Positions 1,235 through 24,174 are shown, counted from the first letter of the stretch. The stretch: 64,000 bases of DNA from Bacteroidota bacterium (GCA_030834125.1 JAURFW010000002.1:131817-195816), one strand, 5' to 3'. Notes: a model not told the origin generated them from the letters alone. Made by a program: numbers and translations.

Positions 1235-1337
1235 TTTAATAGGTATGTCTTATTGTATGTATATGCTTGCAAAAAATTGTGCGTAAGTACTTGATTTAAC
1301 ATATGGTTTACATTATGGTTTAGTCACTTACCCTTGG

Positions 1338-1345
1338 TAATTTTG
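1338..1345 (+). promoter_or_regulatory. Bacteroidetes -7 promoter element TAATTTTG upstream of pckA
   Basis: Matches the TAnnTTTG consensus about 27 nt upstream of the ATG at 1372. Confidence 0.5.
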
Positions 1346-1371
1346 TTGTGTCAAATTTACATTTATTATTT

Positions 1372-2970: not shown

Positions 2971-2982
2971 TTGATCCTAATT

Positions 2983-3011
2983 AAAAAAGCGGCTTTATGC
3001 CGCTTTTTTTC
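2983..3011 (+). terminator. Rho-independent terminator after pckA
   Basis: An A-run, the hairpin GCGGC-tttat-GCCGC, then a T7 run. Confidence 0.8.
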
Positions 3012-3042
3012 TTTTACTAAGTATTCATCAAAACTAGTTTGG

Positions 3043-3050
3043 TATCTTTG
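3043..3050 (+). promoter_or_regulatory. -7 element TATCTTTG upstream of alaS, implying a leaderless transcript
   Basis: Exact TAnnTTTG match ending 6 nt before the ATG at 3057. Confidence 0.55.
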
Positions 3051-3056
3051 CAAATT

Positions 3057-6300: not shown

Positions 6301-7526
6301 ATAATACGTTTTTTAAAGTAAGCACGAATACTAATATATGGATACCAAACCGTAGTTACTAGGTTATATATTGGATACCAGTTAGCACCTTTTCTCATTT
6401 GTAATTTTTTACCCTTTCTGAAATAAATTATCCATTCAGTTATTAACTTTAGGCTAACTAAAGCTGTAGGGTAAATCCAATGGCTTCCAATTATGAAAAA
6501 CAATACCAAAGAAATCCAAAATATTAACTGGGATAATGGATACCACATTAAATGAAACTTAACACCGCTTCTATACATTCTACCAACCCATAAATGTCTC
6601 ATTTTTTGTCTCCAATAATGTTGAAAGTTTTTAGGGCCTTTTGTAGTAGTGAAGCTATTTGTACTCAGGCAAACACTTGTATTTAATCCATTACTTACAG
6701 ACTGTATAAACAAGTCATCGTCGCCAGCTGGAATGTGATGGTGAGAGGAAAAGCCATTTACCGAATCATAAATATCTTTTGTGTACGAAAGATTTCTTCC
6801 GACTCCCATGTAAGGTAAACCTGCCATTGCCATTCCTGTATAGTTTAGTGCAGTAAATAAATTTTCATACTCTACAAGACCTCCAAGAAATCCTTTACCT
6901 CCATCTACAGGGGATATACCAAGAACGATATTTTTTTCCTTGGTTTTTGAATTCATCATTTCTTGAATCCACTGATTACCTACAGGTAAACAATCTGCAT
7001 CTGTAAGTAGTATATTTTTGTATTGGGCTTTTTTAATTCCTAGTGTAAGGGCCAATTTTTTACTACCGTTTTTTATTACTGTTGGATCAAGTAATACATA
7101 TTTAAGTCGGGGTTCTTTTTCTGATTCTCTAACCAAGAAATAGGCAGTTTCATCTCCCGAACAATCATCGACAACAATTACTTCAAATTCAGGGTAATCT
7201 TGCTCTAGCCATAAATGTAAATTATCCTCTAGTAATAGTACTGCATTTTTTGCGCAGATAATTACTGAAACTGGTTCGCTGAATTGGTTGGAATTCTCAG
7301 AATTTATTGGTTTAACTCTGAAATGATAAACGAATGTGTAGTACCAACCCATTAATATACCAAAACCAACCACGGAAATCCCAATGATGTCAATTTGACT
7401 AAAAGGGATATTTTGAAAGTAATTCAATATGTGTTCCACCTTAAACCACAAATCTAATAACAAGCCGTATTTAACTGTAGCAAAGTGTATATGTTGAGGA
7501 TAAATAAATAAATTATTGAGCCTCAT
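6294..7526 (-). CDS. family 2 glycosyltransferase (GT-A fold) with N- and C-terminal transmembrane segments
   Basis: GT2 signature VSVIICAKNA...FEVIVVDDCSGDET followed by a DxD-like LLTDADC, with hydrophobic termini. Confidence 0.75.
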   Translation of the reverse strand: MRLNNLFIYPQHIHFATVKYGLLLDLWFKVEHILNYFQNIPFSQIDIIGISVVGFGILMGWYYTFVYHFRVKPINSENSNQFSEPVSVIICAKNAVLLLEDNLHLWLEQDYPEFEVIVVDDCSGDETAYFLVRESEKEPRLKYVLLDPTVIKNGSKKLALTLGIKKAQYKNILLTDADCLPVGNQWIQEMMNSKTKEKNIVLGISPVDGGKGFLGGLVEYENLFTALNYTGMAMAGLPYMGVGRNLSYTKDIYDSVNGFSSHHHIPAGDDDLFIQSVSNGLNTSVCLSTNSFTTTKGPKNFQHYWRQKMRHLWVGRMYRSGVKFHLMWYPLSQLIFWISLVLFFIIGSHWIYPTALVSLKLITEWIIYFRKGKKLQMRKGANWYPIYNLVTTVWYPYISIRAYFKKRIIW

Positions 7527-7628
7527 TGAGTTCGGAAGTTGAGCAATTTAGAATTTGTAGGAAATAAAATTATACTTTTTCTATAAACAACAATTATATA
7601 TAAATTGCCCAATCAATATTGATTTTTT

Positions 7629-10600
7629 ATGTTCAGTTTCTCCCCTCCCAGAAAGACCTATTTGTTTATAAATAAGAAAACGAAATTTATTCTTATCATT
7701 CTTTGTTTCATTTTATCTAACCAAGTAAGTGGACAATACAGTATTCGGGTAGTGGATTCAAGAAATTCGAGTCCTTTAAATCGGGTTTTGATTAACCGCC
7801 TTGTTAAGAACACAAGCGGGGTTTATACCGAAACCATAGGATATACCGATAGTAATGGTAGGATTTCAATAAATCAACCAAAGGGAACACAAATTCACTT
7901 TATTGCTAACAATTATGAAGAACAAGATTACTTTTTGGGCACTGAAAAACGAATCATGATTTCACTAGAAAGTTCGGTCGATAGAGTAGATGAAGTTGTT
8001 GTTGTTGGTTATTCTAAAGTTAAGAGAAAAGAAATTACAGGTTCTATAGGTTCTGTGAAAGGTGCAGATCTTGTGAAACAGCCAGTTCTTACCGGTACAC
8101 AGGCATTACAAGGAAAGCTAGCAGGGGTTCAAATTACCAATTATGGATCTCCTGGTTCAGCACCAACCGTTCGTATCCGAGGTACAGGTTCTGTTATTGG
8201 AGGCGCGGAGCCTTTATATGTAGTTGACGGAGTGATTACTGATGATATCAGAAATATTTCAACATCAGATATTGTATCTATGGATGTGTTAAAAGATGCA
8301 TCATCAACTGCAATTTATGGAGTAAGAGCTGCTAACGGTGTAGTTTTAATTACTACAAAAGCAGGAAAAAGGGGTTCTTCAAGCTTAAGTTATGACGGAT
8401 ACTTCGGATTTAAGGACCTATCCAACAAAGTATTTATGGCCGGACCAAATTTGTTTACAGCATATTCAAATGAGGCGGCAGGGACCTTTGCAATTAAAGA
8501 TGAACAAATTATTGGTAAAACTGATTGGATGGATGCCATTACGCGCACTGGTTTACAGCAAAACCATTCCATTTCAATAAATGGCGGAGGTGAGAAAAAT
8601 ACATCTTTCCTTTCAGTAAATTACATGAAAGAATCAGGTATTCTTATTGGTAATGATTACGAGCGTATTACGCTGAGAAACAATAATGATTTTTTTGTAG
8701 GTGACAAATTAAGAATTGGAAATACACTGAACTTGAGCAGATATTTCTCGAATAATAAACCATTTAGCGCGTTTACAGCGGCGTATAATGCAGCTCCATT
8801 GTATGATGTAATTGATGAAAATGGAAATTATGGTTACACCGATGTTAACAATGTGGGTAACCCAGTAGCTGCTTTGGATTACACCGATGATCAGTCTTTT
8901 GGAAACAGGTTGATGGGTAATTTGTATGCAGATTGGGAAATAATCAAAGGGCTTAAATTCAATACAAGTTTAGGGCTTGATGCATACGGTAATGAAGGAA
9001 GAAATTATCAAAGAAGATATCGCGTTAGTGGTACGCAGCGTTATGATACAACCACATATACTGTAAGCGCTAATAATGGTTACCGATGGATTTGGAATCA
9101 GTTACTTACATATGATGCCAATATCAATAAAAATCAGACGTTAAAGGTTATTGCAGGTCATACAGCTGAGCAATACGATGGAGAGATGTTTGCTATTTCG
9201 CGAGATGGTGTTCCGTCTAAACCTCAGTACAGATATATCAATACAGGAGCCTCAACAATACAAGGAAATATATTGTATCAAAGACCTGTAAGTGATTATG
9301 GATCCAGAGAAAGTTATCTGGCTAAGGTTAGCTATGCGTATTATGATAAGATATTCGTTTCTGGATCATTCAGAAGAGATGGTTCTTCGAAATTTCCAGT
9401 TCAAAATAGATGGGGAAACTTCCCATCTGTTGGTTTAGCATGGGACCTCACTAAGGAATCATTCTTTCCAAGATCAAAGAATTTTAATTACTTAAAAGCG
9501 CGTGCATCATGGGGTAAGGTAGGGAATGATAGAATTAATCCCTCTGAGTTTGTAACCTTACTATCTACGGGATTAGTTTCTGTATTTGGAAATGGCGATA
9601 TTCAAGATGGTTCTACTATTGCTGAAATAAAGGATCCAAACCTAAAGTGGGAAGTAACAACAGAGTATGATTTTGGATTTGATTTTGAATTAGTTGAAAA
9701 GAGATGGTTTGGAACCATGGATTGGTATTATAAATTAACATCAGGAGCATTATTTAATGTTCCTTTATCTGCTGGTCTTGGAGATAATAATAACAGCATG
9801 CTAACAAATGCCGCAGACATCTCTAATACAGGTATAGAATTAACTTTGGGTTACAAATCACTTCCTGGAGACTACAGGTCAGGTTTTAACTGGAGCTCTG
9901 TGATTACTGCAACCTTTAACAGAAATAGAATAGAAAATTTAGGCTTGGGTAGACCTACAAATTACGGAAGTTTAAACAACGGAGAATTTGCAACTCGCGT
10001 TGCACCCGGCCAGCCAATTGGTGTTTTCTGGGTATACGAGACTGATGGAGTTTACCAAAGTAATGAAGAAATAAATAATTCAGCTCACCTATTTGGTGCA
10101 CAACCCGGTGATTTCAGAATAAAAGACAATAATGGTGATGGGGTAATTGACGATTTAGACAGAGTTTATGTTGGATCTTATCAGCCAATTGCATATTTCG
10201 GTTGGAACACTAAATTAACTTACAGAAACTGGGATTTAAACATTGATATTTTCTCAAACTACGGTAACAAGGTGTTTAACGGAAAGAAAACCGTTAGATA
10301 CGGAGGTAGTTATAATGTAGAATATGATGTTGCTGTAAATAGATGGACGCCTGACAATCCAACAAACGAGGCTCCAAGAGCATATAATGGTGTTCCAAAA
10401 CCATCCGATTATTATGTAGAGAGTGGTTCTTTCATCAGATTAAATAACCTTTCATTAGGCTATACAATGCCCGGTAGGGCAATCTCAAAAATTGGTGCGA
10501 AGTCCCTACGTTTCTATGTTACTGCACAAAACTTATTCACATGGATGAGTTATTCTGGATACACTGCCGAGTTGCCTGGTGCACCGCCACAAGCGGGTAT

Positions 10601-10661
10601 TGAGTTAAATATTTATCCAACTTCACGTACTGTATTAACTGGTGTTCAAATTCAATTCTAA
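7629..10661 (+). CDS. SusC/RagA-family TonB-dependent outer-membrane transporter
   Basis: 1010 aa with a signal peptide, an N-terminal carboxypeptidase-regulatory-like domain, a TonB box and plug (VVVGYSKVKRKEITGSIGSV, TAIYGVRAANGVVLITTK) and a C-terminal beta-barrel ending in F. A SusD gene follows immediately. Confidence 0.9.
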   Translation: MFSFSPPRKTYLFINKKTKFILIILCFILSNQVSGQYSIRVVDSRNSSPLNRVLINRLVKNTSGVYTETIGYTDSNGRISINQPKGTQIHFIANNYEEQDYFLGTEKRIMISLESSVDRVDEVVVVGYSKVKRKEITGSIGSVKGADLVKQPVLTGTQALQGKLAGVQITNYGSPGSAPTVRIRGTGSVIGGAEPLYVVDGVITDDIRNISTSDIVSMDVLKDASSTAIYGVRAANGVVLITTKAGKRGSSSLSYDGYFGFKDLSNKVFMAGPNLFTAYSNEAAGTFAIKDEQIIGKTDWMDAITRTGLQQNHSISINGGGEKNTSFLSVNYMKESGILIGNDYERITLRNNNDFFVGDKLRIGNTLNLSRYFSNNKPFSAFTAAYNAAPLYDVIDENGNYGYTDVNNVGNPVAALDYTDDQSFGNRLMGNLYADWEIIKGLKFNTSLGLDAYGNEGRNYQRRYRVSGTQRYDTTTYTVSANNGYRWIWNQLLTYDANINKNQTLKVIAGHTAEQYDGEMFAISRDGVPSKPQYRYINTGASTIQGNILYQRPVSDYGSRESYLAKVSYAYYDKIFVSGSFRRDGSSKFPVQNRWGNFPSVGLAWDLTKESFFPRSKNFNYLKARASWGKVGNDRINPSEFVTLLSTGLVSVFGNGDIQDGSTIAEIKDPNLKWEVTTEYDFGFDFELVEKRWFGTMDWYYKLTSGALFNVPLSAGLGDNNNSMLTNAADISNTGIELTLGYKSLPGDYRSGFNWSSVITATFNRNRIENLGLGRPTNYGSLNNGEFATRVAPGQPIGVFWVYETDGVYQSNEEINNSAHLFGAQPGDFRIKDNNGDGVIDDLDRVYVGSYQPIAYFGWNTKLTYRNWDLNIDIFSNYGNKVFNGKKTVRYGGSYNVEYDVAVNRWTPDNPTNEAPRAYNGVPKPSDYYVESGSFIRLNNLSLGYTMPGRAISKIGAKSLRFYVTAQNLFTWMSYSGYTAELPGAPPQAGIELNIYPTSRTVLTGVQIQF

Positions 10662-10671
10662 GATCAACACA

Positions 10672-12141
10672 ATGAAAAACACAATCAAATCAACAATTAT
10701 ACTTTCTGTATTATCCATTTCAGTTTTTACATTGAATTCTTGTAGAAAAGATTTTTTAGAAGAAGAGCCTAGGGTACAAACGATAGAGGATTATTTTACC
10801 ACCTCAAATCAAGCTGCAAGAGAAATGGTAAATGCTATCTACAACAAGCTATATGATTGGAATTTACATAGTTTCCCATTTATTGGAATGACCGAAATTG
10901 CAGGTGATAATACCTCAAAAGGTTCAGATGCGGGAGATACAGGAGGAGATAAGGATCAAATGGATGGTTATTTTTTCGCTCCAACTTCAATTTCATTCGG
11001 TGATGTTTGGAGCGGCTATTTCGAAGCAATTGCAAGGGCAAATAAAGCCATTAAATATGTTGATGAATTAGATATCCCTCAATCAAATAAAAACCAATAC
11101 ATAGCAGAAGCAAGATTTCTTAGAGGTTATTTCTATTTCTTTTTAGTTAGAAGTTTTGGTGGTGTACCGTTAATTGATAAAGTACCAATTACAGAAGAAG
11201 AAATTGCAAATACATATGTTCGCGCTTCTGAAGATAAAATATATGACCTCATTGAGTCGGATTTTCAATTTGCCACACAGTTGCCAGCAAAACAATTAAT
11301 AGATTTAGGAAGAGCAAGTGGCGACGCTGCTACAGCAATGTTGGCAAAGGTTGCCTTGTACAGAAAAAACTGGGGATTATGTGCAAATTATTGTTCTAAT
11401 CTAATTTCCTCTGGGCAATATAACTTAGTGAAAGATTATTCTCACATTTGGAGAGAAATTGGAGAATTTTCTGAAGAGTCTATATGGGAAGTTAATTGCA
11501 AAGGAACAGATCCACAAAAAGGAATACTCCAGTATTATGTAGTACAAGCACCAAGAGGTGGAGCAAAAGGTTTAGGGTGGGGATTCAATACTCCAACCCA
11601 AGATTTTTATGATGCCTATGAAGCTGGAGATTTGCGCAGAGATGCTTCAATTATTAAGTCAGGGCAAACACTATGGGATGGATGGGAAACCGATGCCGGA
11701 CATTCAAATCCCTTGTATAATTATAAATCTTATGTAAGCAAAATTGCTGAATCATGGGGTCAAGGAGACGTTAATGCAAATAAGAATTTACGTGTGATTC
11801 GTTATGGTGAAATATTATTGATTGCCGCAGAGGCCGCCAATGAATTAGGCGATCAAACTACGGCTTGCAATTACTTAAATCAAATTAGAAGCAGAGCGGG
11901 TCTCGCTGATTTTAATTCAAACGATGCCGATTCTGTTAGAAATGCAATTTGGAAAGAGCGTAGATTTGAACTTGCGTTTGAACATGATCGCGTATTTGAT
12001 TTGCGAAGACAAGGTAGAATAGGTGATGTAATACGAGCAAATAATATTAACTTTATAGACGGTAAACATGAACTTTACCCAATTCCCCAAAGGCAAGTAG
12101 ATTTGAGTGAAGGAAAAATGTTACAAAACCCTGGATATTAA
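10672..12141 (+). CDS. SusD/RagB-family nutrient-binding outer-membrane lipoprotein
   Basis: A lipoprotein signal ending in LNSC sits directly downstream of SusC, and a TPR-like SusD fold is present. The ATG at 10672 (MKNTIKST...) is preferred over the track start at 10642, which overlaps SusC. Confidence 0.88.
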   Translation: MKNTIKSTIILSVLSISVFTLNSCRKDFLEEEPRVQTIEDYFTTSNQAAREMVNAIYNKLYDWNLHSFPFIGMTEIAGDNTSKGSDAGDTGGDKDQMDGYFFAPTSISFGDVWSGYFEAIARANKAIKYVDELDIPQSNKNQYIAEARFLRGYFYFFLVRSFGGVPLIDKVPITEEEIANTYVRASEDKIYDLIESDFQFATQLPAKQLIDLGRASGDAATAMLAKVALYRKNWGLCANYCSNLISSGQYNLVKDYSHIWREIGEFSEESIWEVNCKGTDPQKGILQYYVVQAPRGGAKGLGWGFNTPTQDFYDAYEAGDLRRDASIIKSGQTLWDGWETDAGHSNPLYNYKSYVSKIAESWGQGDVNANKNLRVIRYGEILLIAAEAANELGDQTTACNYLNQIRSRAGLADFNSNDADSVRNAIWKERRFELAFEHDRVFDLRRQGRIGDVIRANNINFIDGKHELYPIPQRQVDLSEGKMLQNPGY

Positions 12142-12163
12142 TAAAAAAACCAAATAAACAAAT

Positions 12164-13057
12164 ATGAAAAAAAACAATTTATTCTCAACATTAAGCCTTG
12201 TAGCGGTTTCTGCATTGGCCTTGAACTTTCAGGCATGTTCTGATGAGCCAACTGATGACCCAGGAACAAACAACAATACAGGGTATACTAGTTCAGATCA
12301 GATTGCTTCTTCTAACTTGGTAGCTAAGTTTTCTTTTGAAAATAATATGGATGATGCCAAAGGAAATATCTCTGATGTATCTATCAAGAACAACATAAGT
12401 TACGGAACCGGTGCGAAAGGCAGATGCTTCATGGGTACAACAGACGGGTATGCTTTATATTCTAATGTTGGCGCTGCTGTTTCTGGAATGCAAAGTACCA
12501 CCGTTGCTACTTGGGTTAAAACATCTAATCACGCTGATGGTGCTGAGTCTTGGTTCCAATTATTGAATGATAGTAATTATTGGGGGAATATGTTCATTTT
12601 GCAAGAAAGTGGTGCAGATGGAAACGATTCAGTAAGGATTAAATTCACTGTTTGTAACTGGGATGCTCCAGTATGGAATGAACAATGGATGGACTTAGGA
12701 GGTGATAATCGTTTAATCTTAGGTAATAATGAGTGGCACCATTTAGTGTGTACCTACGATGCTGTTTCATCCAAAGCAGCATTCTATGTTGATGGCGAGG
12801 AAATAGCAATGCCAGAGAATGTAACAGATCGTTTTGGAGATGATCCTGCTAATGGTGGTGGACCATTGGGAGCATTGAAATTTAATAATGCAACTCGATT
12901 CGTTTTTGGTTGTTTTGATCAGAACCTTCCTGGAAATAGTCCAGCATCTTGGATGAAGCATTTCGATGGTGGTTTGGACGAATTTCGTCTATATGACAAA
13001 GCATTGGCAGCGGCCGATGTAAAATCTCTTTTTGATTTAGAATTAGCTGGTAAATAG
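12164..13057 (+). CDS. PUL-encoded surface lipoprotein with a LamG/concanavalin-A-like domain (candidate surface glycan-binding protein)
   Basis: Lipoprotein signal (LNFQAC), a LamG-type C-terminal motif GGLDEFRLYDKALAAADVKSLF, and a position right after susD. Confidence 0.65.
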   Translation: MKKNNLFSTLSLVAVSALALNFQACSDEPTDDPGTNNNTGYTSSDQIASSNLVAKFSFENNMDDAKGNISDVSIKNNISYGTGAKGRCFMGTTDGYALYSNVGAAVSGMQSTTVATWVKTSNHADGAESWFQLLNDSNYWGNMFILQESGADGNDSVRIKFTVCNWDAPVWNEQWMDLGGDNRLILGNNEWHHLVCTYDAVSSKAAFYVDGEEIAMPENVTDRFGDDPANGGGPLGALKFNNATRFVFGCFDQNLPGNSPASWMKHFDGGLDEFRLYDKALAAADVKSLFDLELAGK

Positions 13058-13058
13058 T

Positions 13059-14762
13059 TTGAAATTCAATAAATTAAAACTTTCAAAAGGACTCTCACTT
13101 TACAGTGGAGTCCTTTTGTTTTTTGTTATTTTTAATATAGGTTGTAAAAAAACTGAAGAACAACCTAAGAAAAATCAAAATCCAAATGATGTTCAATTAA
13201 TCTCAGTAAAATGGGATGAATTTAATGTCTATGGAATAAGAAAAAATGCTTCAGTAAGTCCAACAGTACGCATCCGATTTTCTGAAAAACTGGATACAAC
13301 TATTGCTAAAAGTGCAATTAAGTTAAAATACAACGGTGTAGTATCTGTTGATAGTGATTATTGGTTTGAAAATAGTGATTCAACTATTGCCTTCAAACCT
13401 AAAGAGTATCTAAAATATTATAGTAAATATACATTGCCGATTACTGCCGATGTTAAATCAAAAGATGGCGGTAGTATACAATCTTCAGCGAACATCCTCA
13501 TAAGAACTACATGGGATCCTAGTCAAAAGTTTAATTTGCTAAGTGAGTCTGATCTATTAGATACAGTTCAAAGAAGAACGTTCAGATATTTTTGGGATTT
13601 TGCGCATCCCGTTAGTGGATTGTCTCGTGAGCGCAATACCTCTGGAGATTTAGTTACTTCAGGTGGTTCTGGTTTTGGTATTATGGCAGCTATTGCTGCT
13701 ACCGAAAGAAATTATATATCAAGAAGTGATTTTGTTCAACATATGGATAAAATGACTGATTTTCTATGGAATACAGCAGATGTATTTCATGGAGCATACT
13801 CACACTGGTTGAGTGGTTCATCTGGTGAGGTTAGGCCGTTTTCAACCAATGACGACGGTGCAGATTTAGTGGAAACATCCTATTTGATTATGGGTTTGTT
13901 AACTGCAAAAGAATATTTAGATAAAAACAACCCTGATGAGCTCAATGTTATTAATAGAATTGATTCCATTTGGCATAGGGTAGATTGGAACTGGTTTACC
14001 AAAAATGGTGCTGAAGATCAGTTATACTGGCATTGGAGTCCTAATAAAGGTTGGATAATGAATATGCCAATTCGCGGTTACAATGAATGTCTTATTACTC
14101 ACGTTCTTGCCGCATCTTCTCCCTCACACCCCGTTGATCCAAAAGTATATCATAATGGTTGGGCGAGAAATGGCGGTATTAAAAATGGTAAGTCCTTTTA
14201 TAGTATAACATTACCACTTGGAGAAGACTATGGTGGGCCTCTGTTTTTTGAACAATACACATTTTTAGGATTGGACCCTAGAGGTTTAACTGATAATTAT
14301 GCAAATTACTGGGATCAAGTAGTAAATCACTCTAAGATTAATCATGCATATTGCAAAGCAAATCCCAAAAATCAAGCGGGATACTCAGACTCTTGTTGGG
14401 GATTAACTGCAAGTGATAACCCTTGGGGATATTCAGCGCATTCACCTACAAATGATAGGGGAGTAATAACTCCAACGGCAGCATTATCTTCAATTCCTTA
14501 TACACCAGAAGAATCAAAAAAGGCAGTGAACTTTTTCTATTATATAATGGGTGATTTATTGTTTAAAGAATATGGTTTTGTCGATGCTTTTTGTGTGGGT
14601 GAAGTTTGGGCTGCTAATTCGTTTTTGGCAATTGATCAAGGTCCAATAATTGTAAATATAGAAAACTACAGATCCCAATTATTATGGGAGTTATTTACTA
14701 AAAATACCGATGTAAAAACAGGCTTGAAATCACTTAATTTTCAAGCACCATATCTAAATTAA
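13059..14762 (+). CDS. glucoamylase-like/DUF3131 (alpha/alpha)6-barrel glycoside hydrolase, GH144-like (candidate endo-beta-1,2-glucanase), with an N-terminal Ig-like domain; lipoprotein
   Basis: Conserved block FWDFAHPVSGLSRERNTSGDLVTSGGSGFGIMA...HWLSGSSGEVRPF...DLVETSYL is shared with the paralog at 17973-19409. It carries a lipoprotein signal and is linked to a GH3 gene. Confidence 0.65.
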   Translation: MKFNKLKLSKGLSLYSGVLLFFVIFNIGCKKTEEQPKKNQNPNDVQLISVKWDEFNVYGIRKNASVSPTVRIRFSEKLDTTIAKSAIKLKYNGVVSVDSDYWFENSDSTIAFKPKEYLKYYSKYTLPITADVKSKDGGSIQSSANILIRTTWDPSQKFNLLSESDLLDTVQRRTFRYFWDFAHPVSGLSRERNTSGDLVTSGGSGFGIMAAIAATERNYISRSDFVQHMDKMTDFLWNTADVFHGAYSHWLSGSSGEVRPFSTNDDGADLVETSYLIMGLLTAKEYLDKNNPDELNVINRIDSIWHRVDWNWFTKNGAEDQLYWHWSPNKGWIMNMPIRGYNECLITHVLAASSPSHPVDPKVYHNGWARNGGIKNGKSFYSITLPLGEDYGGPLFFEQYTFLGLDPRGLTDNYANYWDQVVNHSKINHAYCKANPKNQAGYSDSCWGLTASDNPWGYSAHSPTNDRGVITPTAALSSIPYTPEESKKAVNFFYYIMGDLLFKEYGFVDAFCVGEVWAANSFLAIDQGPIIVNIENYRSQLLWELFTKNTDVKTGLKSLNFQAPYLN

Positions 14763-14763
14763 A

Positions 14764-17109
14764 ATGAAAAAACATTTTCTACTTTTAATTCCATTAATAT
14801 TCGGAATTTCTGCTTCTGCACAAATCTTCTTCCCTAATAAGTTAAGGGGTAGAATAGACACATCTGTTTTTGATCACTATTATCGAGATGTTGAGCCTAC
14901 ATGGTTATCCATTATGAAAAATGAGAAACAACAACAATATCAATTTGAATCTCATTTTCTTGATAGTTTAATGAATTTAATGACTTTGGAAGAAAAGATA
15001 GGTCAGCTTAACTTACCCTCAATTGGGTTTGATGTTACGGGGCCCGTATTGTCTGAAGATGTAGAAAGTAAAATTGATAAAGGTCAAGTAGGAGCTGTTT
15101 TTAATACATTTACCCCAATTGCAGTTAGGAAATTACAGGATCGTGCAATTAAAAATACTCGTTTAGGGATTCCATTATTGTTGGGATATGATGTAATTCA
15201 CGGACACAGAACAATATTTCCAATACCTTTAGGGCTTTCTTGTTCATGGAATCCTAACTTAATTCAAAGTACTGCCTCATTGGCTGCAAAAGAAGCTACC
15301 GCAGATGGTTTGAATTGGACTTTCTCACCCATGGTAGATATTACTCGTGACCCTCGTTGGGGTAGAGTTTCTGAAGGCGCCGGCGAAGACCCTTATCTTG
15401 GCGGTATTGTAGCGCAATCTATGGTTGCTGGTTATCAAGGTAGTGACTTGAAAAAACAAGATAAATTAATGGCTTGTGTGAAGCATTTTGCTTTGTATGG
15501 TGCGGCAGAAGCGGGTAGAGATTACAATACAGTGGATATGAGTGGTTTTCGAATGTATAACGAATATTTACCGCCATATAACGCTGCAGTGTACGCGGGT
15601 GTCGAATCAATAATGACATCATTTAATGATATTAATGGAATTCCTGCTACTTGTAATGATGAGCTAATCCAAGAGGTTTTGAGGAATAAATGGAACTTCG
15701 ACGGATTGGTGGTAACTGATTATACAGCAATTAAAGAACTTGTTTATCATGGTGTTGGAGATGAAAAATCGGTAGCTACAAAATCCATTAAAGCCGGTGC
15801 AGAAATGGATATGGTGAGCGAATATTATTTGAATCATTTAAAAGAAATTGCTCGAGAAGATAAATCGTTTGAAACCTATATAAACAATGCCTGCAGAAAT
15901 GTTTTAAAAGCAAAATTGCGTCTGGGTTTATTTGAAGATCCTTTCAGAGGACTTGACGAAAGCAGACAAAGCGAGTTAATGTCTCCTGAACATCTATCAA
16001 TTGCGCAAAAAGCTGCTGAAGAATCCTTTGTCTTACTTAAAAATGATAAAAGCATACTACCATTAAATCATAAACAAAAAATAGCATTTATAGGACCTCA
16101 AATCAAGCGTAAAAGAGACTTGATTGGCAATTGGAGTGGGGCAGGAGATTGGAAAAAAGCTGTAAGTATTTGGGAAGCTGTTTCAGATCAAAAATATATC
16201 TCTTATGCTTTAGGTTGTAATTTATTAGAGGGTAAAAATGTAATTAGTAAGTTAAATGCTCACGACGGTCAAATTCCAGAAATTCAAGCTGCCGATGAAT
16301 TGCTAAAAGAAGCAATAAAAGTAGCTAAGAAAGCTGATGTAATTGTGCTGGCATTAGGCGAGGCCTTCGGTATGAGTGGTGAGGCAGCATCTATGTCTTC
16401 AATTGAATTACCTGAACATCAGATTCGATTAATTAAGGAATTAAGAAAATTAGAAAAGCCAATTGTTTTGATACTAATGAATGGAAGGCCCTTAGTTTTA
16501 ACTGAAGTTGAACCATTATGCGATGCAATTTTAGAATGTTGGTTCCCAGGAACACAAGGAGGTATCGCAATTAAAAATACCCTTTATGGTCAAAATAATC
16601 CAAGTGGTAAATTAACAATGACCTTTCCTCGTAGTCTAGGTCAAGTGCCAATTTATTACAATCACAGAACTACGGGTAGACCCTTAGAAGAAGACCAAAA
16701 GTATACTTCAAAATATTTAGATGTGCCAAATACTCCGCTTTATCCTTTTGGGTATGGTTTGAGTTATTCTTCATTCGATACAGAACTTAAAGGCATTTCT
16801 CAAGAAGGAAATTTCATTCATATTGATGTAGATGTAACTAATACTTCAACTGTTGATGGAAGCGAAATTGTTCAACTCTACTACCGAGATGTTTTATGCA
16901 GCTATACTCGTCCGGTCAAACAATTATGTAGATTCTTGAAAGTGGACTTAAAGCAAGGTGAAAAACGTAATATTCGTTTTGATATATCTACTCAGGAGCT
17001 AGGATTCTTCGATAACCAAGGAAATTGGATTATTGAAAAGGGTGATTTTGAGTTTTTTGTAGGTCCTAATTCTCAGAATTTGGAGAAGGTTGATTTTGTT
17101 TTAAAATAG
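14764..17109 (+). CDS. GH3 beta-glucosidase (BglX-like), periplasmic
   Basis: Signal peptide plus GH3 motifs GIPLLLGYDVIHGHRT, KHFALYGAAEAGRDYN and SGFRMYNEYLPPY, followed by the C-terminal alpha/beta and FnIII-like domains. Confidence 0.9.
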   Translation: MKKHFLLLIPLIFGISASAQIFFPNKLRGRIDTSVFDHYYRDVEPTWLSIMKNEKQQQYQFESHFLDSLMNLMTLEEKIGQLNLPSIGFDVTGPVLSEDVESKIDKGQVGAVFNTFTPIAVRKLQDRAIKNTRLGIPLLLGYDVIHGHRTIFPIPLGLSCSWNPNLIQSTASLAAKEATADGLNWTFSPMVDITRDPRWGRVSEGAGEDPYLGGIVAQSMVAGYQGSDLKKQDKLMACVKHFALYGAAEAGRDYNTVDMSGFRMYNEYLPPYNAAVYAGVESIMTSFNDINGIPATCNDELIQEVLRNKWNFDGLVVTDYTAIKELVYHGVGDEKSVATKSIKAGAEMDMVSEYYLNHLKEIAREDKSFETYINNACRNVLKAKLRLGLFEDPFRGLDESRQSELMSPEHLSIAQKAAEESFVLLKNDKSILPLNHKQKIAFIGPQIKRKRDLIGNWSGAGDWKKAVSIWEAVSDQKYISYALGCNLLEGKNVISKLNAHDGQIPEIQAADELLKEAIKVAKKADVIVLALGEAFGMSGEAASMSSIELPEHQIRLIKELRKLEKPIVLILMNGRPLVLTEVEPLCDAILECWFPGTQGGIAIKNTLYGQNNPSGKLTMTFPRSLGQVPIYYNHRTTGRPLEEDQKYTSKYLDVPNTPLYPFGYGLSYSSFDTELKGISQEGNFIHIDVDVTNTSTVDGSEIVQLYYRDVLCSYTRPVKQLCRFLKVDLKQGEKRNIRFDISTQELGFFDNQGNWIIEKGDFEFFVGPNSQNLEKVDFVLK

Positions 17110-17944
17110 ATTTTTTTGAAGAACTAAATACCCACGGAAGAACTTCTTTAATTGCAATGGTTGAATCCCATGCATTGTGATTGGCTTCAGGGAAAAGTGT
17201 GTATCTGCTAGGAATTCTTTGTGCGAGTAATTGTTTGTGCACATTGAAAGAATGATGATAGTTTACAATATCATCTTTTTGGCCATGAAAGAACCAAAAG
17301 TTTGAGTTCTTCTGGGCAGTTGGATTTATTAATATCCCTCCTCCACAAATAGGAAAAACAGCAGAAAAGGTATTAGGTATTCGTTGAATGAACTCTATTA
17401 TACCCATCCCTCCCATAGATATTCCACCTATGTAAAATCGATTAGTGTCTATCAAATCTTGAGATATTAATTCTGAGATTTTAGCTTTCCATAAATCAAT
17501 CAATAAACCCATTGCTTTAGTTGGCTTTTCCTCAGAGTTAAAAATAAAATTTGGTTTACCATTGCAGTCTTCAGTCCTTATTACATTGCTCCAATAACTG
17601 GTGTTTGGGCATTGAGGGAAAATTAATATCGCAGGCTCGTTATTTTTAACATAATTATAAATCCAACGTCCACCATGAGTAAATTGCTTAATATTATCTT
17701 TGCCGCTTTCACCTCGGCCGTGAAGGAATAATAAAACTGGGAGTTTTTTGTTTGTAGTATTAGTAGGTATGTAGATTCTGTAAGGTAATGAATCCAAGCT
17801 ATTATTGATGAAGGTATTAGCTTGAAAGAAGTCAATATAATTGGTTTCAATATTTTGAGATTGTGTAATGGAAATAGAAACAAAAGTGGCCATTAATAAT
17901 AGATTTTTTAAAAGGTTCATTTTATCTGATATTTTGGTGTACAA
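17066..17944 (-). CDS. secreted alpha/beta-hydrolase esterase (phospholipase/carboxylesterase or PHB-depolymerase-like)
   Basis: Signal peptide, an oxyanion-hole region LLFLHGRGESG, the nucleophile elbow GGISMGG and a C-terminal His region. It overlaps the GH3 3' end convergently by 44 bp. Confidence 0.7.
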   Translation of the reverse strand: MYTKISDKMNLLKNLLLMATFVSISITQSQNIETNYIDFFQANTFINNSLDSLPYRIYIPTNTTNKKLPVLLFLHGRGESGKDNIKQFTHGGRWIYNYVKNNEPAILIFPQCPNTSYWSNVIRTEDCNGKPNFIFNSEEKPTKAMGLLIDLWKAKISELISQDLIDTNRFYIGGISMGGMGIIEFIQRIPNTFSAVFPICGGGILINPTAQKNSNFWFFHGQKDDIVNYHHSFNVHKQLLAQRIPSRYTLFPEANHNAWDSTIAIKEVLPWVFSSSKKSILKQNQPSPNSEN

Positions 17945-17972
17945 TTTATGATTTAACCTTATCTTTTCAAGA

Positions 17973-19409
17973 ATGAATCGAGATCTTCTTAAATATTTTT
18001 CTGGTTTTTTAATTCTAGTACTTACTCAATCCTGCTACACTCAACAAACTAAATTAAACGAGTATTCCACATTCAGTGATGATGTAATTTCTAAACAACT
18101 TCATGAGTTTACTTATGATTCATTAACAACATATCAAAAACAAATCTTCGATTCAGTACAGTATGCCACTTTTCAATATTTTTGGGAAGGTGCGGAGCCC
18201 AATTCAGGAATGGCTCGCGAAAGAATTCATTTAGACGGAAATTACCCAGATAATGATTACAATATTGTAACTACTGGAGGTTCAGGGTTTGGAATTATGG
18301 CAATATTAGTAGGGATAGAAAGAGGATGGGTTACTTATGATAGTGCATTAGAAAGGATGAACACAATAATATCTTTTCTAGAAAATTGTGATCGGTTTCA
18401 TGGCGTTTGGCCTCATTGGCTAAACGGAGAAACTGGGAAAGTAAAGCCATTTGGGAAGAAGGATAATGGTGGAGATTTGGTGGAAAGTGCGTTTTTATTG
18501 CAAGGATTGCTCACTTGGGAAATGTATCTTATTGAAATGAATCATATTTCAACAAGATATCGTCCCTTAGCTGCGAATCTTGTAGATAGGATCCAGAAGC
18601 TGTGGTTAGATGTTGATTTTAAATGGTATACAAATAATCAAAACGTACTTTATTGGCATTGGAGTCCAGATTATCATTGGGATATGAACTTTCCAGTGAA
18701 AGGGTATAATGAATGCTTAATAATTTATATCCTGGGTGCATCCCATCCATCAAATGCAATTGATTTTAATCATTATTATTACGGTTGGTGTGATTCTGGG
18801 AATATACATAGAGTTGGTAAAAATCAAAAACAAGCTTATCACCAATTAAATCTGCGCCACCAAGGTAATCTTCAAAATGGAGGTCCTCTATTTTGGTCGC
18901 ACTATTCCTATTTAGGATTAAACCCCTTCTCAATCAAAGACAATTACATCAATTCAAATTATGGCGTTGAAAGTACAAATCACATACTGAATTGTATAGA
19001 ATGGTGTACTAGAAACCCTATGAATTACAAAGGATATTCGGATAGTAGCTGGGGCTTAACTTCGAGTTATTCAGTAAGGTTTTATTCAGGACATGCTGCA
19101 GATTCTAGCAGAGATATCGGCGTAATTTCACCTACTGCAGCATTGAGCTCATTTCCATATACACCTGAATACTCCTTAAAAGCTATGATGAATTGGTATG
19201 AGAATAAGCCAGAGATTTTTCTAAAGTATGGATTTATTGATGCCTTTTCAGATCAGGAGAACTGGTTTAAACCATGGTATTTAGCCATAGATCAAGGTCC
19301 AATAGTTTGTATGATGGAGAACTTTAGAAGTGGATTATTATGGAAATATTTCATGAAATCGGATGAAGTAAAAAAAGGACTACGAAAGTTGCATTTTGTT
19401 GTAGAATAA
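17973..19409 (+). CDS. second glucoamylase-like/DUF3131, GH144-like glycoside hydrolase paralog; lipoprotein
   Basis: Conserved block FWEGAEPNSGMARERIHL...TTGGSGFGIMA...HWLNGETGKVKPF...DLVESAFL matches the first paralog. The lipoprotein signal ends in LTQSC. Confidence 0.65.
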   Translation: MNRDLLKYFSGFLILVLTQSCYTQQTKLNEYSTFSDDVISKQLHEFTYDSLTTYQKQIFDSVQYATFQYFWEGAEPNSGMARERIHLDGNYPDNDYNIVTTGGSGFGIMAILVGIERGWVTYDSALERMNTIISFLENCDRFHGVWPHWLNGETGKVKPFGKKDNGGDLVESAFLLQGLLTWEMYLIEMNHISTRYRPLAANLVDRIQKLWLDVDFKWYTNNQNVLYWHWSPDYHWDMNFPVKGYNECLIIYILGASHPSNAIDFNHYYYGWCDSGNIHRVGKNQKQAYHQLNLRHQGNLQNGGPLFWSHYSYLGLNPFSIKDNYINSNYGVESTNHILNCIEWCTRNPMNYKGYSDSSWGLTSSYSVRFYSGHAADSSRDIGVISPTAALSSFPYTPEYSLKAMMNWYENKPEIFLKYGFIDAFSDQENWFKPWYLAIDQGPIVCMMENFRSGLLWKYFMKSDEVKKGLRKLHFVVE

Positions 19410-19477
19410 GACAAAAATTATTATTTGTTGTTGAAGTTCAGGTTTAGATTTGAATTATTGTAGAAAATACAATAATA

Positions 19478-20200
19478 TTGCTCAATATCACCATGTCTGA
19501 ATCTAAAAGACCCGATAATCTCAACCAATATTTCCAAGCGGCGGTTTCCGTCGATAATGTTGTTTTTGGTTTCGATAATGAGGTTCTAAAAATTCTTTTG
19601 ATATATCGAGGAGCCGAACCCTATAAAAATTATTGGGCACTCCCAGGAGATTTAATTAACCTAGAATCTGATCTTGATAATTCTGCGGTAAATGTACTCC
19701 AATCATTAACAGGATTAGATGATATTTTCATGGAACAGATTCGCACTTTTGGCCGTGTTGATAGACACCCATTCGGAAGGGTTTACACGGTTGCATATTA
19801 CTCATTAATTAAATCAGAAGATTATAAAGTTTCTGCGCAATCATGGGCGGAAGAAGCAGATTGGTTTCCAATTTCAAAACTTCCTGAGTTACCGTTTGAC
19901 CATAATGAGATTGTTGAATTTGCAAAGCAACAATTGAAGATGCGCATCCGCGTCCAGCCAGTAGGGTTTGAGTTACTACCTAAATATTTTACCTTATCTG
20001 AATTACAAAAATTATACGAGGCAATATTAGAAACAGAATTCGATGTTCGTAATTTTAGAAAGAAAATATTATCTACTGGATTTATATTAGATACAGGATT
20101 AAAACAAACTGGCGTTACCCACAGACCTGCTAAATTATACAAATACAACGCAAAACGCGATTATAGTATTATCAGTTCAGGAATGAATTTTGATTTGTAA
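19478..20200 (+). CDS. NrtR/AraR-family transcriptional regulator (Nudix-like sensor domain plus C-terminal winged helix)
   Basis: The Nudix fold has a degenerate Nudix box (GDLINLESDLDNSAVNVLQSLTGL) lacking the REx2EE catalytic residues. The C-terminal block FTLSELQKLYEAILETEFDVRNFRKKIL...RPAKLYKY is typical of the NrtR wHTH. It is the last gene of the PUL. Confidence 0.7.
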   Translation: MLNITMSESKRPDNLNQYFQAAVSVDNVVFGFDNEVLKILLIYRGAEPYKNYWALPGDLINLESDLDNSAVNVLQSLTGLDDIFMEQIRTFGRVDRHPFGRVYTVAYYSLIKSEDYKVSAQSWAEEADWFPISKLPELPFDHNEIVEFAKQQLKMRIRVQPVGFELLPKYFTLSELQKLYEAILETEFDVRNFRKKILSTGFILDTGLKQTGVTHRPAKLYKYNAKRDYSIISSGMNFDL

Positions 20201-20343
20201 TAAAATAGAAACTTCCTACCTCAACAAAGTTACGTCTGTAGCAATTACTTTTAGGATTTTTAGAGAGTCCCAATACATATCCGTAATTATGATGTAAACG
20301 CGATTTTATGAGAATTGAGGGGTAACAATCACTGACGAATAAT

Positions 20344-20372
20344 AAAAAAAGCCTCTTTTAAGAGGCTTTTTT
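20344..20372. terminator. bidirectional Rho-independent terminator between the NrtR-like gene and tRNA-Pro
   Basis: A7 run, the hairpin GCCTCT-ttta-AGAGGC, then a T6 run. Confidence 0.8.
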
Positions 20373-20447
<75 letters not shown>

Positions 20448-20466
20448 TTTTTTGCTGTCTTAAGTG

Positions 20467-20540
20467 CGACCCCGATAGGATTCGAACCTATGACCTACTG
20501 CTTAGAAGGCAGTTGCTCTATCCAGCTGAGCTACGAGGTC
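20467..20540 (-). tRNA. tRNA-Arg (anticodon TCT)
   Basis: Hand-folded cloverleaf: acceptor GACCTCG/CGGGGTC, anticodon stem ACTGC/GCAGT around the loop CTTCTAA, T-loop TTCGAAT, discriminator G; 74 nt. Confidence 0.85.
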
Positions 20541-20665
20541 TTGCCCAAAAGGAGTGCAAAAATAACTTATGTTTTGAATATTTACAACAAAATTCAGATA
20601 AAATATTATGGTCATTTAAATCAATTTTATTCGACAAACAGAATAGAATTAATTCGTTTTCTGCG

Positions 20666-20673
20666 TAAGTTTG
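20666..20673 (+). promoter_or_regulatory. -7 element TAAGTTTG upstream of the tandem-AAA gene
   Basis: Exact TAnnTTTG match 8 nt upstream of the ATG at 20682. Confidence 0.5.
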
Positions 20674-20681
20674 AATAACGC

Positions 20682-24173: not shown

Positions 24174-24174
24174 G

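Follow-up and report, generated by a model that had tools for sequence, protein, structure and literature searches.

GH144 PULs are abundant in their phylum, and GH144/GH3 PULs rank among its most widespread (PMC6499787, PMC6786605). A cluster reported in Maribacter comprises one GH3 gene, two GH144 genes and susCD, and every Maribacter and Zobellia has both GH144 genes (PMC8072126). Activity on beta-1,2-glucan is established for the Chitinophaga pinensis endo-beta-1,2-glucanase CpSGL, in which E211 acts as general acid, E142 is the candidate base and D135 and D139 are further acidic residues; E211, F268 and Y330 (CpSGL numbering) define the SGL clan (PMC12102758). Natural substrates were addressed in a Bacteroides GH144 PUL whose GH35 is a beta-1,2-galactosidase (PMC11739564) and by Lapebie et al., who inferred a sulfated marine analogue (PMC6499787). 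[quoted passage not shown]

The window (i.e., the whole analysed stretch of 64 kb) was confirmed to hold a Bacteroidota PUL of the GH144/GH3 type at positions 7629-20200, as observed in a first-pass annotation, whose gene order, strands and domains were all recovered by ORF and domain searches. An adjacent SusC-like/SusD-like pair is co-oriented with CAZyme genes, and the features are as follows:

7551-7573, no strand: best operator-like sequence near susC, candidate, GAATTTGTAGGAAATAAAATTAT, 56 bp upstream of susC
7629-10661, plus strand: SusC-like TonB-dependent transporter, 1010 aa (Plug domain, E = 1.2e-15)
10672-12141, plus strand: SusD-like lipoprotein, 489 aa (SusD_RagB and SusD-like_3 matches)
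12164-13057, plus strand: LamG/ConA-like lipoprotein (Laminin_G_3, E = 6.6e-14)
13059-14762, plus strand: GH144 paralog 1 (type 1), lipoprotein (Big_5 and PF10091, 235 bits)
14764-17109, plus strand: GH3, BglX-type beta-glucosidase (GH3 N, C and Fn3-like domains; SPI signal peptide)
17066-17920, minus strand: secreted alpha/beta-hydrolase carboxylesterase, 284 aa (Abhydrolase_2/Peptidase_S9; signal peptide)
17973-19409, plus strand: GH144 paralog 2 (type 2, CpSGL-like; PF10091, 214 bits; signal peptide)
19454-19476, no strand: perfect 23-bp palindrome ATTATTGTA-GAAAA-TACAATAAT, 17 bp upstream of the regulator ATG
19493-20200, plus strand: NrtR/AraR-family one-component regulator, 235 aa (NrtR_WHD, 1.4e-25; AraR_C, 1.7e-15)
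20205-20336, no strand: junction where congeners have a 769-aa GH3b gene (blastn, L083 against the window)
20345-20372, no strand: bidirectional terminator hairpin (12-bp stem between A and T runs)
20373-20447 and 20466-20540, minus strand: tRNA-Pro and tRNA-Arg genes (downstream flank)

The SusD start at 10672 follows the gene call of L001 (longest ORF, 10642-12141), and the longest ORF of the regulator begins at 19478. The domain search found no STN signalling extension in SusC. The SusD lipobox reads ...LNSC, followed by RKDFLEEE, and the LamG lipoprotein, with the N-terminus ...NFQAC-SDEPTDD, is a candidate surface glycan-binding protein. Both flanks carry housekeeping genes (upstream GT2, gidB, alaS and pckA; downstream tRNA-Pro, tRNA-Arg and an AAA ATPase), and the hairpin, which closes the regulator transcript as well as the convergent tRNA-Pro/tRNA-Arg genes, marks the locus boundary.

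Synteny was assessed across the GH144 loci of 80 other genomes, among which the order SusC-SusD-LamG-GH144-GH144-GH3 recurs. Type-1 GH144 orthologs are present in 50 of these loci, SusD in 47, SusC in 44 (30-46% identity, at the head of syntenic loci), GH3 in 43, LamG in 26 (3' of SusD, as also in L117 and L118), the esterase in 11 and an NrtR-like gene in one; the SusC/SusD plus CAZyme arrangement is kept in 44-47. The cluster is an ordinary, well conserved and already recognised type of PUL, its two GH144 genes included. Unusual here are the absence of the usual dedicated regulator and a nearby Nudix-type regulator that is probably a separate small unit without its partner.

Both paralogs are firmly placed in GH144 by homology. 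Their PF10091 scores compare with a cut-off of 27 bits; paralog 2 matches CpSGL (5GZH) at E = 2.2e-169 over residues 48-475, and paralog 1, in which a Big_5 Ig-like domain at the N-terminus precedes the GH144 catalytic domain, matches 4GL3 at 1.6e-151 and 5GZH at 1.8e-135. BDI_3064 (5Z06; presumably an exo-acting GH144 enzyme) and XCC2207 (8XUL) were further PDB matches and are GH144 members too. We take XCC2207 to be the XcSGL of PMC12102758. Of the two profile families to which the first-pass annotation had pointed, PF10091 was found and PF11329/DUF3131 was not (no match at E<=1e-3 in either paralog), the latter being immaterial given the PF10091 and PDB matches. Its statement that the glucanase domains of cyclic glucan synthases belong to the same fold family agrees with the placement of GH189 in the SGL clan (PMC12102758). 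The shared motifs that it quoted are real: in alignment A1, in which the paralogs are 43% identical, FWEGAEPNSGMARER pairs with FWDFAHPVSGLSRER and HWLNGETGKVKPF with HWLSGSSGEVRPF, and GGSGFGIMA is present in both. Residues D164, D168, E171, E247, F307, Y371 and D440 of paralog 2 correspond to D135, D139, E142, E211, F268, Y330 and D400 of CpSGL, and paralog 1 is identical at all of these positions (alignment A1 and PDB alignments); every residue known to matter in CpSGL, the conserved acidic ones included, is kept. An (alpha/alpha)6-barrel is implied for both, because the alignment to solved GH144 structures is near-gapless and rich in identical residues over the whole domain. The activity predicted from family membership is endo-mode, inverting hydrolysis of beta-1,2-glucan, with paralog 1 as a putative surface and paralog 2 as a putative periplasmic endo-beta-1,2-glucanase. 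Paralog 2 is compact, and its ambiguous N-terminus fits a periplasmic lipoprotein or a soluble protein.

A pair of same-family genes that lie within 5 kb and have motifs in common could be read as a recent, redundant local duplication, a reading that we regard as extremely improbable and that is refuted by the ortholog pattern of both types. The paralogs are just 43% identical and differ in architecture, and separate orthologs of each (45-60% identity) are found in other orders. Both occur together in 50 of the 80 genomes; scores cleanly divide type-1 from type-2 genes, every gene can be assigned to one type, and most type-1 alignments also span the N-terminal domain. Both types are represented in the PDB, 4GL3 being nearer to paralog 1 and 5GZH, 4QT9 and 3EU8 nearer to paralog 2. 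The two GH144 genes are ancient, conserved and probably functionally divided paralogs, not the product of a local or recent event.

The GH3 scores 824 bits against the NCBIfam BglX equivalog NF011678 (cut-off 666) and matches 5XXL at 2.4e-222 and Lin1840 at 9e-174. We take 5XXL to be BT_3567 and both proteins to be GH3s active on beta-1,2-oligosaccharides. The enzyme would be a periplasmic exo-enzyme, and a preference for beta-1,2 linkages (sophorose) is suggested by genomic context and by the likeness to 5XXL and Lin1840; the linkage specificity of a GH3 is not readable from sequence. The first-pass substrate call, beta-1,2-glucan, is supported by the homology of the paralogs to CpSGL together with the BglX-type GH3.

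The esterase (serine motif GISMG) matches 3DOH, deposited as 'esterase', at 5e-29. Its family is a recurrent accessory of GH144 PULs: besides the 11 loci counted above, both loci retrieved in look-ups from the esterase side were GH144 PULs of other families. It may de-acylate a decorated glucan, and its recurrence hints at an acylated substrate. Beta-1,2-glucosyl stretches might then be only one element of the target, a decorated or heteropolymeric glycan (e.g., an acylated cyclic glucan, a branched OPG-like glucan or an unknown exopolysaccharide of fresh water), and 'beta-1,2-glucan PUL' would be an oversimplified name. Related loci that add a GH43 with an F5/8 domain, a GH2, a second esterase, a sulfatase or a GH31 are in line with this, as are the sulfated marine analogue (PMC6499787) and the GH35 beta-1,2-galactosidase (PMC11739564), and such GH43, GH2, sulfatase and GH35 genes suggest that the natural substrate may exceed plain beta-1,2-glucan. 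The window PUL, however, has no enzymes beyond GH144, GH3 and one esterase, a set that would be enough for a lightly acylated homoglucan. As far as is known, also from PDB annotations, every biochemically characterised GH144 enzyme is active on beta-1,2-gluco-oligomers or polymers, and this counts against a decorated target, which we hold to be possible but not the likelier case.

No HTCS, SusR, BguR-like or ECF/anti-sigma genes adjoin the locus. When ECF sigma, FecR and BguR-like proteins of other GH144 loci served as tblastn queries, no homolog was found within the 64-kb window, in agreement with the absence of HTCS, SusR and ECF regulators reported in the first-pass annotation. Among other GH144 loci having enough upstream sequence, 12 of 16 contain ECF/FecR; alternatively, such PULs carry Y_Y_Y+GerE sensors. 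Upstream of susC, L061 encodes a BguR-like Y_Y_Y protein of 941 aa (with GerE) and L032 one of 959 aa, and tblastn found homologs in six more GH144 loci, unlike in the window. A 942-aa ORF at 52062-54890, of a size matching BguR, was rejected as an unrelated polytopic membrane/TPR protein. A linked dedicated regulator is common in PULs, though not obligatory, and the window PUL has none.

The one regulator gene present, also noted in the first-pass annotation, encodes a degenerate Nudix-like sugar-binding domain followed by a C-terminal NrtR-type winged HTH (PF21906, 1.4e-25; PF19368, 1.7e-15), and the protein aligns with BtAraR (5BS6) at 3.8e-48 over residues 18-222. The NUDIX Pfam model gave no match at 1e-3, and the REUXEE position of the Nudix box reads VNVLQS. 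An R39/R91/H137 triad is invariant among 118 homologs. The palindrome at 19454-19476 is predicted to be an autoregulatory operator. The 64 kb contain no other close match: the palindrome itself has 0 mismatches and the one further match has 3, against a chance expectation of 0.28 at <=3 mismatches. Its half-sites (ATTATTGTA-N5-TACAATA) are conserved, with a variable spacer, upstream of nearly all regulator orthologs (69-92% identical) in L082-L110.

The neighbourhoods of its gene bear on whether this protein controls the PUL. In the congener L083, a GH3b gene begins at the regulator stop codon and is followed by downstream genes identical in kind to those of the window, in which the corresponding junction measures 132 bp and contains no GH3b remnant (no significant local alignment). 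GH3b is also absent from the sister genomes L111 and L112. Regulator orthologs of 69-76% identity have no GH144 nearby; most lie beside GH3b and have an oppositely oriented SusC/SusD pair, which in L108-L110, where neighbours were annotated, belongs to a laminarin-type PUL with GH16/PKD. GH3b orthologs (53-54% identity) are found with these regulators in every locus whose contig reaches far enough, as judged from loci with at least 300 aa of alignable GH3b. Relatives with 91-92% identity are the only ones adjoining GH144. The NrtR/AraR-like regulator is thus probably not the PUL's own but a neighbouring separate unit, in view of one NrtR-like gene in 80 GH144 loci and the GH3b partner.

The opposite reading appears unlikely, although several observations fit it: the protein would be a cytoplasmic repressor that binds close to the promoters of susC and GH144-2, lets go in response to glucan-derived glucose or sophorose, and replaces the ECF or BguR-type sensors of other GH144 PULs. 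The locus has no second regulator gene; this one shares the strand of GH144-2, follows it after 83 bp and adjoins the GH144 PUL in all genomes of the genus-level group (L082, L084, L103, L111 and L112), and BtAraR, too, controls SusC/SusD operons (PMC4666351). The gene is intact and has a perfect operator in three GH3b-less genomes (window, L111 and L112), which suggests a remaining target that could be the adjacent PUL. There is also a weak operator-like site at 7551-7573 and a TACAAT half-site at 17940. However, the former has 6/18 mismatches, one of them within the invariant TACAA core, and sites that match this well show no enrichment relative to shuffles (10 observed, 5.8 expected). The conserved operator occurs once per locus, solely in the regulator's own promoter, and is absent from the susC promoters. 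Across the other 80 GH144 loci, the single NrtR-like gene is a member of another clade and has a different palindrome, orthologs of 69-76% identity do without GH144, and no inner-membrane sugar importer is encoded in the locus.

We therefore consider it reasonably likely, as a joint reading, that the locus is a minimal PUL of the phylum-wide GH144/GH3 type, directed at beta-1,2-glucan of bacterial origin, with two ancient GH144s and no cis-encoded regulator, next to a separate GH3b unit to which the regulator belongs. The LamG lipoprotein and SusD would bind the glucan at the cell surface, where the lipoprotein GH144 type 1, spaced from the membrane by its Ig-like domain, would cut it endolytically. 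Oligosaccharides would be imported via SusC, shortened in the periplasm by the CpSGL-like GH144 type 2 and cleaved by the BglX-type GH3 with release of glucose, and the esterase may strip ester substituents (e.g., succinyl or acetyl) that would block the enzymes. The NrtR/AraR-like protein would be an autoregulated, sugar-responsive repressor with a conserved operator in its own promoter and a second beta-glucosidase gene, GH3b, as its conserved partner, lost in this species. If it is not the PUL switch, the PUL is left without a cis-encoded regulator of the ECF sigma/anti-sigma or BguR-like kind, and control may be exerted in trans or expression may be basal.

The regulator was compared with BtAraR (BT0354) and BtXylR (BT0791), sugar-responsive NrtR-family repressors of Bacteroides, with which it shares a Nudix-like effector domain devoid of the catalytic glutamates, a C-terminal winged HTH and a palindromic promoter operator of ~23 bp. 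The Arg/Arg/His triad that hydrogen-bonds the sugar in BtAraR and its DNA contacts Arg180, Asn181 and Lys184 are likewise conserved. In contrast to BtAraR, the pocket-lining residues carry the exchanges F36A, G48D, F49L and G89F, which make L-arabinose an improbable effector. Val replaces K179, the residue that recognises the G of the GTGT motif in AraR, and TTGTA-N5-TACAA forms the core of the operator. Unlike in both repressors, the conserved partner, absent from the window genome, is a GH3 beta-glucosidase near beta-glucan PULs instead of pentose catabolic genes. The nearest kin of the PUL itself are the GH144/GH3 PULs represented by C. pinensis CpSGL, B. thetaiotaomicron BT_3567, the conserved PUL of Elizabethkingia and the Maribacter/Zobellia clusters. 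It differs from these in having no ECF sigma/anti-sigma pair or BguR-like sensor beside susC, in its minimal enzyme set without sulfatase, GH43 or GH2, in the inverted esterase between GH3 and GH144-2, and in its origin from an uncultured, low-GC (~35%) lineage represented only by MAG and metagenome contigs. It shares with them the SusC/SusD pair, the LamG-like lipoprotein, two distinct GH144 types whose catalytic residues match CpSGL exactly, the BglX-type GH3 and a gene order found in dozens of genomes.

The eight genes that the first-pass annotation had assigned to the locus were all located at the positions claimed, with domains as stated, and the motifs it had quoted as shared by the two GH144 paralogs were found in both sequences. 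Genes and associated elements are as follows (window coordinates).

Composition of the locus and its associated elements
7629-10661, SusC
10672-12141, SusD
12164-13057, LamG-type lipoprotein
13059-14762, GH144 paralog 1 (type 1), Big_5 Ig-like domain and PF10091
14764-17109, GH3
17066-17920, minus strand, alpha/beta-hydrolase esterase with signal peptide
17973-19409, GH144 paralog 2 (type 2), compact
19454-19476, perfect 23-bp palindrome ATTATTGTA-GAAAA-TACAATAAT, 17 bp before the regulator ATG
19493-20200, regulator with NrtR_WHD/AraR_C winged helix
20345-20372, putative bidirectional terminator hairpin, perfect 12-bp stem between A and T runs

The flanks consist of housekeeping genes, with GT2, gidB, alaS, and pckA upstream, and with the hairpin, tRNA-Pro and tRNA-Arg (minus strand), and an AAA ATPase downstream. 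The hairpin could end transcription of the regulator as well as of the convergent tRNA genes; it was the only useful result of the terminator scan, and a sigma-70 promoter scan was uninformative (52 found, 52.5 expected). Besides the two tRNAs, an Rfam scan of 5000-21500 returned sub-threshold noise, and no second CAZyme cluster was present among the scanned ORFs in the remainder of the 64 kb. The block at 20682-26403, syntenic in the congener and sister genomes, encodes a protein of 873 aa (two AAA+ modules, long N-terminal part without Pfam match), an ORF of 289 aa that also lacks a Pfam match, and an HTH_40-containing PIF1-like helicase. A T9SS cargo protein of 1260 aa (DUF7948, SBBP beta-propeller repeat, CHU_C sorting domain) is encoded at 29017-32799 (plus strand).

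The paralogs, 43% identical in alignment, were both assigned to GH144 as originally proposed, based on matches to solved GH144 enzymes and to PF10091. In PDB searches, the Chitinophaga pinensis endo-beta-1,2-glucanase CpSGL (5GZH) was matched by paralog 2 over nearly the full length (E=2.2e-169), paralog 1 matched 4GL3 (E=1.6e-151) and CpSGL (E=1.8e-135), and BDI_3064 (5Z06) and XCC2207 (8XUL) were matched by both. For residue comparison, CpSGL chain numbering was taken as residue numbering because the spacing D135-x3-D139-x2-E142 fits.

Residues of CpSGL (PMC12102758) and their equivalents in paralog 2
D135, D164: mutation causes drastic activity loss
D139, D168: mutation causes drastic activity loss
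E142, E171: candidate general base
E211, E247: general acid, within YNECLI
F268, F307: clan-defining
Y330, Y371: clan-defining
D400, D440: conserved in much of the clan; mutant retains sufficient activity

All seven columns were also invariant in the alignment with paralog 1, and the acidic residues among them (CpSGL D135, D139, E142, E211, and D400) are kept in both paralogs. The GH3 of the locus scored 824 bits against an NCBIfam BglX equivalog threshold of 666 bits, and its strong PDB matches included 5XXL (presumably BT_3567) and Lin1840 (4ZO6), both of which we take to be active on sophorose and beta-1,2-oligosaccharides. The beta-1,2-glucan call is well supported by homology.

Scanning one genome per species with the two-paralog alignment gave 584 relatives that were confirmed. 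The best 80 of the 584 loci, a set that did not include the window's own species, were searched by tblastn with the eight window proteins; the resulting counts are lower bounds because many contigs end early. SusD was found in at least 47 of these best 80 of 584 loci, SusC in at least 44, GH3 in at least 43, a LamG homolog in at least 26, the esterase in at least 11, and an NrtR-like gene in at least one. The loci stem from Chitinophagaceae, Cyclobacteriaceae, Sphingobacteriaceae, Bacteroidales, Prolixibacteraceae, and others, and the order SusC-SusD-LamG-GH144(type 1)-GH144(type 2)-GH3 recurs across them. Each of their GH144 genes fell into one type by score; type-1 ORFs comprised 555-680 aa and most alignments began in residues 1-70 of paralog 1, so the Ig-like extension belongs to the conserved type. 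The two GH144 genes of the window are ancient paralogs, each having separate orthologs, rather than a product of local duplication. A type-1 gene lies less than 10 kb from the type-2 gene in at least 50 of the best 80 of 584 loci. Surface-type and periplasmic-type GH144 are almost always paired in GH144 PULs; to our knowledge, biochemical characterisation within GH144 covers the periplasmic type (type 2) only. GH144 PULs are among the abundant PULs over 964 genomes (Lapebie et al., PMC6499787), and the window locus is another member, a textbook copy, of this recognised and very common PUL type. Three other GH144 PULs (L002 6269-8899, minus strand; L117 5752-7473; L118 13330-20801) carry extra GH31, GH43 with F5/8 type C domain, a second GH3, GH2 with malectin domain, COesterase, and sulfatase genes. 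The wider GH144 PUL family may act on substrates of greater complexity than plain beta-1,2-glucan.

In SusD (C-RKDFLEEE), the LamG protein (C-SDEPTDD), and GH144 type 1 (C-KKTEEQ), acidic residues come after the lipobox cysteine, which suggests that these three are surface lipoproteins. GH3 and the esterase carry SPI-type signals. The signal peptide of GH144 type 2 contains an ambiguous lipobox, and an acidic patch is lacking. In the proposed mechanism, glucan would be bound at the surface and endo-cleaved by GH144 type 1, the products would be imported via SusC and trimmed in the periplasm by GH144 type 2, glucose would be freed by GH3, and substituents would be cleared by the esterase. With the esterase gene inverted, the plus-strand genes would fall into two or more transcription units (susC-GH3 and GH144-2), and the regulator would be transcribed from its own promoter with a predicted operator.

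The esterase contains a GISMG serine motif, and its best solved relative is the esterase 3DOH (5e-29), presumably from Thermotoga maritima. Its homologs in GH144 loci, found in at least 11 of the best 80 of 584, were 40-50% identical and varied in position and orientation. Both loci recovered from the esterase side (esterase at L117 10001-10786 and at L118 10001-10801) were GH144 PULs of other families, namely SusC-SusD-LamG-GH144-GH144-GH43-GH3-esterase in Arcticibacter tournemirensis and SusC-SusD-LamG-GH144-GH144-esterase-GH3-GH3-GH2-esterase-sulfatase-GH43 in Gaetbulibacter saemankumensis. Across families, this esterase is a specific and conserved accessory gene in GH144 PULs. Natural cyclic beta-1,2-glucans and OPGs bear succinyl and other ester substituents, and we therefore infer that the esterase would de-acylate the glucan. 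No paper connecting the esterase family with de-acylation in GH144 PULs was found in a literature search; that one carboxylesterase family accompanies these PULs may point to an acylated natural substrate.

At least 2.5 kb of sequence 5' of susC was available in 16 of the 80 loci (best 80 of 584). A homologous pair of ECF sigma and FecR anti-sigma genes was present in 12 of these 16, and a Y_Y_Y-domain protein of 941-959 aa in two, the 941-aa one (L061) also having a GerE domain. The Y_Y_Y proteins fit the preprint description of the membrane-spanning regulator BguR, homologs of which reportedly accompany marine GH144 PULs in a consistent manner (preprint 10.64898/2026.01.10.698779). The first-pass annotation was correct in reporting no HTCS, SusR, or ECF regulator: neither these nor ECF/anti-sigma or BguR-like genes occurred among the scanned ORFs of the 64 kb, tblastn searches for ECF sigma, FecR, and BguR-like proteins retrieved no homolog anywhere in the window, and its SusC lacks an STN domain. 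The locus therefore represents a real departure from the GH144 PUL norm. A 942-aa ORF at 52062-54890 (minus strand), considered as a distal BguR for its matching size, was rejected, as it had no Pfam match at E<=1e-5 and hence no Y_Y_Y or GerE domain; from its sequence it reads as a polytopic membrane protein ending in a TPR-like region, and it shows no similarity to the comparison loci. In L002, the closest genome-collection relative among the matches listed, no regulator was found downstream of GH144-2.

The regulator is a clear NrtR/AraR-family member (E=3.8e-48 to the Bacteroides arabinose regulator BtAraR, 5BS6). The catalytic glutamates are missing from its Nudix box, REUXEE reading VNVLQS. 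Residues of BtAraR that hydrogen-bond L-arabinose (R34, R86, and H131; PMC4666351) correspond to R39, R91, and H137, which are invariant across 118 homologs. Residues that form the arabinose pocket are altered (F36A, G48D, F49L, G89F). The DNA contacts R180, N181, and K184 are retained, and K179 is replaced by Val. The 64 kb contain no other close match to the palindrome at 19454-19476 (at <=3 mismatches, 0.28 matches were expected by chance and one other, with 3, was found). It recurs immediately 5' of nearly all ortholog regulator genes with conserved half-sites and a variable spacer (ATTATTGTA-N5-TACAATA) and is usually unique within up to 20 kb of each locus; L085 and L102, where almost no sequence precedes the regulator gene, gave no match. 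It was not found at the susC promoters of laminarin-type loci or of the window, whose best susC site (7551-7573) has 6/18 mismatches, one inside the invariant TACAA core, and matches as poor as this were not enriched over shuffles.

The regulator neighbourhood was scanned in 21 metagenome loci and in further loci around regulator homologs. The esterase-GH144-regulator arrangement occurred only in relatives with 91-92% identity (L082, L084, and L103), in which the start of a different GH3 gene (GH3b, 27-30% identical to the PUL GH3) abuts the regulator stop codon. No GH144 was found near regulator orthologs of 69-76% identity, downstream of which a GH3b ortholog (53-54% identity to that of the congener) is present wherever the contig is long enough; in some loci the distance to it is about 7 kb, and in L105 a same-strand gene run beginning with a GH2-domain protein comes between. 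In most of these loci, the opposite strand carries a SusC/SusD pair, which in L108-L110, with annotated neighbours, falls within a GH16-PKD/CBM-SusD-SusC laminarin-type PUL. In L108-L110 (10001-20200) and L087-L094, regulator orthologs (69-71% identity) edge laminarin-type PULs (GH3, GH16, PKD/CBM4_9, SusD, SusC), and a conserved protein of about 1080 aa without Pfam match is encoded directly upstream of the regulator.

In the congener (L083), GH3b (865-3236, 769 aa) begins at the regulator stop codon and is BoGH3B-like, its best solved relative being the Bacteroides ovatus beta-glucosidase BoGH3B. Regulator and GH3b are followed there by the tRNA/AAA-ATPase region common to both genomes, with 2.4 kb in L083 versus 132 unrelated bp in the window (20205-20336). 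No GH3b remnant was detected in these 132 bp (local alignment below shuffled controls, reading frames empty), and two sister genomes (95% and 93% nucleotide identity, the closest assembly being GCA_038153365.1 at 95%) likewise have 132 bp at this site and lack GH3b. Its absence is most simply a clean gene loss beside tRNA genes. On the most parsimonious reading, regulator and GH3b would form a conserved unit, autoregulated via the palindrome, that adjoins different beta-glucan PULs by lineage and has lost GH3b here.

The NrtR-like gene of L064, the only GH144 locus of the best 80 with one nearby, was rejected as a counterpart: it belongs to a different clade (40% identity, intact NUDIX match) and has its own palindrome, no SusCD, and an intervening ORF. 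That palindrome (TTGTGTATA-T-TATACACAA, about 7160-7180) is similar to the AraR motif of the GTGT type. Regulator homologs at greater distance (54-62% identity) had mixed contexts (GH65 and HAD, T9SS cargo, or nothing), and no family-wide context rule was drawn for them. A further gluco-disaccharide setting of the family is seen in L114/L115 (3203-8732), where a GH65 glycoside phosphorylase and a HAD (beta-phosphoglucomutase-like) gene lie between two NrtR/AraR-like paralogs.

A broader proposal, speculative and in our judgement rather unlikely to hold in full, is that the regulator represents an undescribed NrtR/AraR specificity branch. It would act in the cytoplasm as a sensor of gluco-sugars (glucose or a beta-glucobiose), recognise the operator ATTATTGTA-N5-TACAATA, and be linked to a GH3 beta-glucosidase beside beta-glucan PULs (laminarin-type in one lineage, beta-1,2-glucan here). 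Its survival in this species without the partner gene would then reflect additional control of the GH144 PUL or of other loci. In parallel, the esterase would serve specifically to remove acyl groups from succinylated or acetylated beta-1,2-glucans.

Beta-1,2-glucans comprise cyclic glucans and osmoregulated periplasmic glucans, and many Proteobacteria produce them. PULs for these glucans suggest that Bacteroidota recycle envelope glycans of other bacteria, a picture to which the present locus adds little because it is a textbook copy. Three points are modestly new, namely the decayed regulator-GH3b unit, the missing ECF/BguR regulators, and the GH144-tied esterase, and they do not overturn current understanding. 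An AraR-like regulator clade with a defined operator is linked to a beta-glucosidase beside beta-glucan PULs, and this genome is a natural example of the regulator apparently outliving its target gene. If the proposed specificity branch is real, it would constitute a third mode of beta-glucan PUL control besides ECF pairs and BguR.
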